Virus record (IMG/VR): IMGVR_UViG_2609459830_000016
Reading direction: 5' to 3' (one strand)
Source: a virus
Taxonomy: Duplodnaviria > Heunggongvirae > Uroviricota > Caudoviricetes
DNA: 10,036 bases
Position numbers and translations under genes: made by a program. The notes beneath the pieces are model-generated. The model made no database searches. It was not told where the DNA came from and worked only from the letters and a program-made list of their open reading frames with translations. The stretch's first letter is position 1. The number at the start of each line of letters is the position of its first letter. Positions 8,451-9,050 of this stretch are shown piece by piece.

Positions 8451-8616
8451 TAGTTGTTCATATTCTGATGACATGATAATTTCCTATTGAATAGAAAAAA
8501 TTAACACGACTCATTCTTATGACTGGAAAAAGCAATCATGCTAATAATCATTGTTGTTCCAGTTCCAAATGCAGCGAAATAATCACCAATATTTTTTCTA
8601 CCGGTTTCGACTTTGA

Positions 8617-8625
8617 TGCTATATT
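8617..8625 (+). promoter_or_regulatory. Candidate extended -10 promoter element (TGcTATATT) for the 8679-9026 ORF
   Basis: TG-n-TATATT lies about 55 nt upstream of the ATG in an AT-rich leader. The -35 is weak (TTCTAC-like). Confidence 0.3.
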
Positions 8626-8678
8626 CTGCTAACACCTAACTAACACTACGTTTCACACAGCAATTACATGGAAATAAC

Positions 8679-9026
8679 ATGACTATCAAAGCGACTGACA
8701 TAGAGATTCTTCATCGTTATGCTGAAGGGGTAATGGAACGTTCTAACCATCATGCAAAAAATGTTGGTGCAGCCGCTCTTACATTGCTAGGAGGTGTTAT
8801 CTGGAAAGCCCTGCCCGGATCAATCGAGATAAGAACGTATAACGGAAGTCTTGCAAATATGGTGTGGTGGCAAAGCGAAAGAACATTAAAAAATTATGCA
8901 ATCTCATACAACCATAATTCATGTGAAATTGAAATGAGAGATGAATCAGTCAAAGGTGCTGTATTATTTAGCATTTCCAACGAAACCACTCCAGAAAAAA
9001 TATTATCACAGCTTTCTGAGCTTTAA
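8679..9026 (+). CDS. Hypothetical protein (115 aa), opposite-strand moron between the replication and nin modules
   Basis: ATG at 8679 with a weak GGAA RBS. It is transcribed against the phage early operon, has a candidate promoter of its own, and is followed by a hairpin at 9033-9050. G+C is moderately low. The family is not recognised. Confidence 0.55.
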   Translation: MTIKATDIEILHRYAEGVMERSNHHAKNVGAAALTLLGGVIWKALPGSIEIRTYNGSLANMVWWQSERTLKNYAISYNHNSCEIEMRDESVKGAVLFSISNETTPEKILSQLSEL

Positions 9027-9032
9027 TTAAAG

Positions 9033-9050
9033 GCGGTGCTAACACCGCCC
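9033..9050. terminator. Hairpin between the convergent 115-aa ORF and the P remnant
   Basis: ggcggtg-ctaa-caccgcc, a 7-bp GC-rich stem. Flanking A/T runs are modest on both strands. Confidence 0.3.

Follow-up and report, generated by a model that had tools for sequence, protein, structure and literature searches.

A VCH_CASS14-family gene in the ren position of a DLP12-like lambdoid prophage of Shiga-toxigenic Escherichia coli: candidate moron-like cargo

Introduction

Morons, in the sense of Hendrix and Juhala, are extra genes with their own promoter and terminator and a deviant base composition, as exemplified by lambda bor and lom and by HK97 gp15, and Ren is a non-essential lambda protein concerned with the exclusion system Rex. 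A gene that can be compared with both lies in IMG/VR virus record IMGVR_UViG_2609459830_000016, a 10,036-nt stretch of DNA that was analyzed over its full length and is referred to here as the window. This gene, ORF115 (8679-9026 including the stop codon, plus strand; 115 amino acids from an ATG start; annotated in RefSeq as hypothetical protein WP_000152742.1), stands beside the replication gene P of a DLP12-like lambdoid prophage. Its product belongs to Pfam family PF18315 (VCH_CASS14), a known and structurally solved family, and is in that respect nothing categorically new.

The family is represented in the PDB by entry 3IMO, a structural-genomics target from the chromosomal integron of Vibrio cholerae named Vch_cass14 (Sureshan et al., 2013; PMC3548836). 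This protein forms a dimer of alpha+beta sandwiches joined via their helices, and the monomer contains a deep hydrophobic pocket, about 15 Å long, that held an unidentified linear molecule (PMC3548836). The pocket is lined by about 17 apolar residues and has a polar entrance formed by Tyr14, Arg21 and Asn60, which bound acetate at the pocket mouth (PMC3548836). In the literature searched, no paper assigns a function to the family, and only the 2013 structural-genomics paper (PMC3548836) mentions it. Likewise, no study of the ORF115 gene was found in the literature, and the available part of a 2026 integron-cassette defence screen does not list the VCH_CASS14 family.

Vch_cass14 and ORF115 resemble each other in length (113 and 115 amino acids), in the retained pocket residues with the Tyr14/Arg21/Asn60 entrance, and in being single-gene cargo of a mobile element, neither with a known function. 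They differ in that ORF115 is carried by a lambdoid prophage and not by an integron, in that it needs its own promoter whereas the cassette uses Pc, in a two-residue insertion at positions 67-68 of ORF115, and in changes of residue size in the pocket (V5A, I15A, A22S and A37L). An integron origin of the window copy was ruled out, since no attC-like core pair (RYYYAAC ... GTTRRRY, 40-130 nt spacing) was found in the window on either strand, and the copy is therefore not an integron cassette. Lambdoid morons are matched in several respects: ORF115 is present or absent between otherwise collinear prophages, its block has a GC content of 36% compared to 53% for P, it stands between a promoter-like AT-rich leader and a hairpin, and its site lies between functional modules of the early right operon. 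In contrast to described morons, its promoter and terminator are candidates read from the sequence, it is inverted relative to the surrounding operon, and it replaced a resident gene, ren, instead of being cleanly inserted between genes. With lambda ren, ORF115 shares the genomic slot, in which a five-codon ren relic is still attached to the P stop codon, but there is no sequence relationship, and the orientations differ: ren, running in the direction of pR, is expressed from the early transcript, to which ORF115 is antisense.

Results and Discussion

Family membership, predicted fold and selection

ORF115 matched PF18315 with an E-value of 5.7e-20 (71.7 bits compared to a cutoff of 26.7), residues 12-104 aligning with profile positions 2-92 of 97, and a phmmer comparison with 3IMO (3imo_A) gave an E-value of 1.3e-17. 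These HMM and homology searches, which place ORF115 in PF18315 and with 3IMO, contradict a first-pass annotation of the DNA that had described the protein as matching no family; this statement was false. The fold predicted for ORF115 is the two-layer alpha+beta sandwich that defines the family, with the order beta-alpha-alpha-beta5-alpha, and the hydrophobic residues of the helices are conserved in the family alignment. Frataxin/CyaY, YdhG-like and YjbR-like alpha+beta sandwiches were counted among its closest known counterparts. When the 20 pocket and entrance residues of Vch_cass14 were mapped by sequence onto ORF115, 12 of the 20 were found to be identical and the other 8 to be conservatively replaced by apolar or small residues, and the entrance residues Y14, R21 and N60 were all identical. 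A comparison of 81 diverse members of the family showed G17, M19, R21, H24, H25, A26, L34, G38 and W42 as well as N60, W63, Y73 and H79 to be invariant, with Y14 conserved in at least 90% of them.

At 90% identity the family, a small one, forms 666 clusters; at 50% identity it has 282 representatives among 1.84 billion, and it is common in environmental Alphaproteobacteria. Its members are nearly always stand-alone proteins of about 113 amino acids. Domain fusions were considered as a clue to function and rejected: the few longer members contain no second Pfam domain, and the lone exception, one HTH/transposase fusion to half a domain, is probably an insertion artefact.

Homologues of 115 amino acids with 63-78% identity to ORF115 are found in Citrobacter, Klebsiella, Enterobacter, Pantoea and Serratia. 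When ORF115 was compared with six such homologues from Citrobacter, Serratia and IMG/VR prophage contigs, which likewise cover 63-78% identity, synonymous sites were saturated (pS 0.72-0.89), pN ranged from 0.08 to 0.29, and dN/dS was at most 0.11 wherever dS was computable. Judged by these substitution patterns, ORF115 is a real gene under strong purifying selection. Within E. coli selection was not measurable, because all 181 copies are at least 99% identical. A weak Shine-Dalgarno-like GGAA can be read from the sequence at 8670-8673 (plus strand), 5 nt before the ATG; the TGGAAATGATATG motif of this region is kept in the prophage homologues (alignment A3), and in every carrier the ORF and the GGAA-ATG region at its start are intact.

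Position in the early operon and replacement of ren

The window shares 100% identity with a DLP12-like lambdoid prophage that resides in the chromosomes of bovine and human Shiga-toxigenic E. coli such as strain E2865. The early right operon of the phage lies on the minus strand, as do all phage genes at 4127-8163. From right to left it starts with P (9231-9953, minus strand; PF06992, 1e-61), an antirepressor-like gene and a HEPN gene with its partner, and continues with ylcH, ybcN (ninB-like), ninE, ybcO, rusA, ylcG and quuD, beyond which a plus-strand OmpC-like porin gene, the lysis genes and iss/bor follow. ORF115 is convergent with P and is the sole plus-strand gene between 4127 and 9953. 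The earlier description of a 115-amino-acid ORF at 8679-9026 running against the early operon thus stands, the ORF being opposite to P and to the genes at 4127-8163, and its assignment to the P/ren position was correct as well. At the stop codon of P an overlapping ATGACGGGCAAAGAA codes for MTGKE, the product of codons 1-5 in ren of the lambda type. This ren relic (9220-9234, minus strand), the ATG of which overlaps the P stop, forms the right-hand junction of the replacement. In an ungapped comparison with the P-ren prophage L004 the sequences were identical up to about 9220 and unrelated beyond, and megablast matches to prophages with a P|ren arrangement stopped at query position 1122, corresponding to window position 9221.

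The left-hand junction is formed by a copy of the "ylcH and upstream" segment at 8343-8504, a direct repeat (D1) that is 81% identical to 6021-6182. Matches to this segment, which normally precedes ylcH-ybcN, occur in thousands of E. coli prophages; in DLP12 of K-12, one of these, it lies upstream of ybcN. The second copy of ylcH plus upstream sequence is annotated as a truncated pseudogene in RefSeq, and the direct repeats at 6021-6182 and 8343-8504 bracket the antirepressor and HEPN cargo. Given the ren relic and the left-hand repeat, the low-GC block of about 760 bp at 8461-9221 is a replacement of ren from codon 6 onward. The GC content of this block is 36.3%, with 38.5% for ORF115 and 32.6% for the leader at 8461-8678, compared to 44.5% for the whole window and 52.7% for P. 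The bracketing repeats suggest that cargo is exchanged by recombination at the conserved junction that they mark.

Carriers of ORF115 account for 181 of 5426 complete E. coli genomes, in which the gene is always single-copy, at least 99% identical and adjoining P. The prophage contexts number at least three, namely the DLP12 site, an O157:H7 prophage near 1.86 Mb, and a duck isolate in which the cargo next to the gene is different. The flanks of ORF115 without the gene itself are present in thousands of genomes, and related prophages have ren or other small genes after P at the same junction (L003, L004).

Leader and hairpin

Early phage transcripts cannot serve to express ORF115, which is antisense to the operon read from pR, and since no plus-strand gene lies upstream for 4.7 kb, a promoter of its own is required in 8461-8678 and would be expected there. 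This AT-rich leader (plus strand, 32.6% GC) has no convincing gene of its own. The candidate promoter is an extended -10-like TGCTATATT at 8617-8625 (plus strand), the last base of which lies 53 nt before the ATG. In a simple sigma-70 weight matrix this site scored highest in the 220 nt upstream of ORF115, but its -35 element, TCTACC or TTCTAC, is poor. TGCTATATT aligns with TGCTATGTT and TGCAATGTT in homologous loci. In those loci the bases code for N-I-A in the product of a divergent theta-like gene, and because of this coding role the partial conservation of TGCTATATT cannot be read as conservation of a promoter.

Several further candidates in the leader were not sustained. Small ORFs of the leader had no family match in any search, including a 44-amino-acid hydrophobic ORF at 8501-8635 (minus strand); considered as a small toxin or partner, the latter was judged spurious in view of its GTG start, its lack of a family match and its lack of conservation outside E. 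coli. A relic of a DNA polymerase III theta gene (P1 Hot-like) upstream of ORF115 was not established and is not claimed for the window, because all that remains in the comparison of the leader with the upstream region of a homologous locus is a 15-nt match (E=0.14), together with the peptide NIASKSK. Rfam detected no RNA family in 8461-9230.

On the other side of ORF115 a GC-rich hairpin, GGCGGTG-CTAA-CACCGCC, is located at 9033-9050, 7 nt after the stop codon, with a 7-bp stem and a 4-nt loop. Its folding z-score is -3.6 on the plus strand and -2.8 on the minus strand, and none of 200 shuffled sequences folded as well. The minus strand, on the P side, continues after the hairpin with UUUAAUUAAAG, which provides a short UUUAAUU tail. 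A hairpin is present 3' of the stop codon in 6 of 7 prophage copies. It is found at the same place with different stem sequences in L005, L006, L062, L064 and L065, the hairpin of the Citrobacter copies having a canonical U-tract and that of L064 flanking A and U tracts. For the P transcript the hairpin of this window is no worse a terminator than for ORF115, and it probably resembles a tR2-type terminator for P more than a terminator of ORF115. ORF115 has no plus-strand ORF after it that might encode a partner: non-coding DNA takes up the next 180 nt, and then the convergent P is reached. The non-coding spacer of the low-GC block at 9051-9219, between the hairpin and the ren relic, contains no ORF with a family match and does not resemble the downstream flanks in homologous loci.

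Genomic company of the relatives

The inverted orientation of ORF115 recurs in its prophage relatives. In Citrobacter prophages (L005-L007) the early-operon genes that flank the homologue are all encoded on the other strand, and the same was found in IMG/VR prophage contigs (L062-L064); in all of these the homologue is located between the replication genes and Q. The divergent upstream gene in other enterobacterial prophages encodes a DNA polymerase III theta subunit (HolE / P1 Hot-like) on the minus strand, which is intact in L062 (5688-5960; PF06440, 2e-35), while the Citrobacter loci carry truncated theta-like pseudogenes on the same strand (L005, 5826-5945; L006, 1009-1128). The V. cholerae copies are solitary cassettes with variable neighbours.

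In Serratia marcescens (L008-L011, 4206-6348) a gene for a 586-amino-acid AIPR/AbiU protein (PADLOC AbiU, 6e-53) is followed after 35 nt on the same strand by a homologue with 64% identity to ORF115 (alignment A1; 67% in the local BLASTP alignment), and the two may form a two-gene unit. In 12 of 35 genome loci, all of them from Alphaproteobacteria, the family gene is translationally coupled to a conserved gene for a 165-amino-acid partner that starts between -4 and +3 nt from its stop codon. This partner is helical, comprises 148 clusters and matches nothing in Pfam or the PDB. In 6 of 40 loci scanned the nearest neighbours included a Fic-domain protein (SoFic / PDC-S04 models). The resulting order of VCH_CASS14, 165-amino-acid partner and Fic genes was found in L021, L023-L026 and L028-L034 (about 5001-6600 in each, with gaps of -4 to +3 nt), and the same three genes are present in Pectobacterium brasiliense (L070, 2446-4029); such a mobile operon appears to be undescribed.

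In four unrelated loci (L012, 5416-6713; L016, L018 and L027, 5001-6325) the family gene shares a 4-nt overlap (ATGA-type coupling) with the start of a gene for an XerC-like tyrosine recombinase of about 320 amino acids. In L012 a DUF6530 gene lies upstream of the family gene, and the flanks hold a TacAT and an MmeI-type restriction-modification gene. Other genes found near family members encode type IIG restriction-modification, TacAT, Gp49/HigB-like and cyclase proteins.

Proposed role and rival explanations

The explanation that we consider best, with a probability of roughly 50% for the whole of it, is that ORF115 is horizontally acquired, moron-like cargo that would be expressed in the lysogen and would encode a ligand-binding dimer with a role in conflicts of mobile elements and phages. 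Shiga-toxigenic and related E. coli carry the gene in a DLP12-like lambdoid prophage, of which it would be accessory cargo, a moron as Hendrix used the term. Its expression would be favored in the lysogen, in which pR is repressed and no convergent transcription would arrive from P, while in the lytic cycle antiterminated transcription from pR would pass through ORF115 in the antisense direction; the hairpin may insulate the two convergent transcription units. By homology to 3IMO the product is predicted to be an alpha+beta sandwich of about 13 kDa that dimerizes via its helices, its pocket mouth presumably formed by the conserved Tyr14 and the invariant Arg21 and Asn60, with His24-His25 and His79 also invariant, and it most likely binds, or possibly turns over, a small, linear and amphipathic molecule whose head group is anionic. 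A conflict role seems the most likely one because the family occurs as single-gene units or beside AbiU, Fic, restriction-modification, toxin-antitoxin and recombinase genes, and it is our guess that ORF115 serves in defence, exclusion or counter-defence during conflicts between mobile elements and phages. A bolder version, which we regard as rather doubtful, is that VCH_CASS14 as a whole is an unrecognised conflict protein that acts singly, a small dimer that senses or sequesters a linear amphipathic ligand, thereby blocks superinfection or disarms a host defence of the AbiU or Fic-based kind, and was captured independently by prophages, integrons and defence islands, ORF115 being a new lysogen-expressed exclusion or counter-defence gene of Shiga-toxigenic E. 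coli (STEC) prophages.

The observation behind the first-pass annotation was confirmed in part, and its view of ORF115 as a moron is likewise partly supported: the absence of the gene from related prophages, the deviant GC content, the recurrent inversion and the hairpin in 6 of 7 prophage copies agree with it, while the proposed promoter was indistinguishable from background and the hairpin serves P at least as well. The promoter-like leader that it had described is indeed AT-rich and contains TGCTATATT, but the motif is at chance level, and its GC hairpin is real as a fold (z = -3.6), but not convincing as a terminator of the ORF. These shortcomings belong to a set of results that weigh against the explanation given above. 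TGNTATAWT occurs once in the window compared to 1.09 occurrences expected by chance, and 17% of random 220-nt windows of the same sequence match the score of the TGCTATATT site. On the plus strand the hairpin is followed by CAUACCAUUACUCC, which has no T-run or U-tract, and a terminator consensus scan did not list the hairpin on either strand. ORF115 matched no family of PADLOC-DB v2.0 at E<=1 and none in NCBIfam, and a Foldseek search of BFVD gave no structural match at E<=0.001. By tblastn no ORF115 homologue was found in 50,697 sequenced phage genomes, and ORF115 is so far known only from prophages, which may be defective. The protein is slightly acidic (pI 6.1), while Vch_cass14 was reported with a basic sheet surface, and the ligand of 3IMO was never identified (PMC3548836). 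Many neighbours of the family are plain metabolic genes, and the company of defence-related genes, given here as raw counts, is no more than suggestive of a conflict role. A role of ORF115 in defence or exclusion is suggested by the genomic company of its relatives only, with no known defence model matching the protein itself.

The same genomic company could also be read in terms of an orphaned module subunit, the solitary ORF115 being an antidote or regulator that neutralises a 165-amino-acid, Fic or AbiU effector, encoded by the host or a competing element, as a counter-defence in the manner of phage-borne orphan antitoxins. The family gene comes first in an operon in which the 165-amino-acid partner, with its 148 clusters and no match to Pfam or PDB, is coupled to it in 12 of 35 genome loci, with Fic following in 6 loci and the complete set of three genes also found in P. 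brasiliense. A small protein encoded first is the typical gene order of type II toxin-antitoxin systems. However, the prophage clade with its 115-amino-acid proteins and the Vibrio cassettes are always solitary, and neither partner nor Fic was annotated or detected in the window, L001, L068 or L069, where no dedicated tblastn search for the partner was made. A Fic-antitoxin function was considered for segment 12-17 (HxYAEG), which resembles the Fic-inhibitor motif [ST]xxxE[GN], and was rejected because position 16 varies (E/D/T/N/S/M) even in Fic-linked members; the motif thus fails. The HEPN likeness of the partner is that of a generic four-helix bundle, its conserved R-x3-H not fitting Rx4-6H, and the invariant residues at the pocket mouth favor a small-molecule site over a mere protein-protein interface. 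We regard the orphaned subunit as decidedly unlikely. The pocket itself would suit another explanation, in which ORF115 is a lysogenic-conversion gene outside phage conflict that binds or modifies a lipid- or fatty-acid-like molecule from the host or the environment, for instance a signal or a metabolite derived from membranes, and alters host physiology or gut colonisation. The hydrophobic pocket of 3IMO, about 15 Å long, with its linear molecule and with acetate at Arg21/Tyr14 (PMC3548836), residues that are conserved in ORF115, is in line with this, as are the ordinary metabolic genes adjoining members of environmental Alphaproteobacteria and the presence of other plus-strand conversion genes, the OmpC-like porin and iss/bor, in the window. 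Nevertheless, no conserved metabolic or transport partner was found, and the recurrent neighbours are Fic, recombinase, restriction-modification and Abi genes. We consider such a conversion gene unlikely.

That ORF115 does nothing at all, being a silent passenger with an ORF left intact through recent acquisition, no working E. coli promoter and a hairpin that is the tR2-like terminator of the phage, appears very unlikely to us. The 181 E. coli copies, all at least 99% identical, the chance level of the promoter motif and the U-rich tail of the hairpin on the strand of P instead of that of the ORF are in favor of such a passenger, and the carrier prophage shows signs of decay (an IS3 insertion, pseudogene fragments and the ren relic). 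Against this, strong purifying selection acts between diverged prophage copies, the inverted orientation and the hairpin have been kept in several unrelated prophage backbones, and the ORF with its GGAA-ATG start is intact in every carrier. Moreover, AT-rich leaders of 218 nt, the length of the one found here, are rarely without any sigma-70 activity in E. coli.

Should ORF115 prove to be expressed and active, it would open a first way into the biology of a family whose crystal structure dates from 2009 but which has no function assigned. The nin regions of Shiga-toxigenic E. coli prophages, whose accessory genes shape phage susceptibility and fitness, would also gain a further item of cargo. 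The comparative contexts offer concrete pairings in the form of solitary cassettes, prophage morons, the Fic operon, the AbiU adjacency and the tyrosine recombinase coupling. As it stands, the finding is that of an ordinary uncharacterised moron, and it is useful chiefly because the gene could be entered at low cost, as a reasonable candidate, in screens for defence and anti-defence.

Other features of the window

The minus-strand phage operons of the window are also broken by a plus-strand OmpC/NmpC-like porin gene at 2857-3939, between Q and the lysis genes, and likewise by iss/bor at 725-1066 (plus strand), after Rz. Both are well known from prophages of the DLP12 type as genes of lysogenic conversion.

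A P1/P7 immI-like antirepressor module is located directly to the left of the ORF115 region (7978-8200, minus strand). It has a sigma-70-like promoter, TTGACG-18-TATATT, at 8200-8171, an isrK RNA (RF01394, E=3e-12), a C4 antisense RNA (RF01695, E=1.7e-15) and c4 target sites a1/b1 (RF03163, 40.6 bits, below the gathering score), and its gene, annotated at 7318-7926 (minus strand), encodes a Bro-N / P22AR_C antirepressor-like protein.

A HEPN-domain gene at 6602-7018 (minus strand; PF05168, 3e-6) matched the PADLOC candidate PDC-M28A (1.8e-7) and shares a 22-nt overlap with a gene for a 133-amino-acid protein at 6222-6623 (minus strand) that has no family match. Both lie in DNA of about 35% GC in the nin region and constitute a candidate two-gene toxin-antitoxin or defence pair, and in the duck isolate other genes are present in place of this pair.

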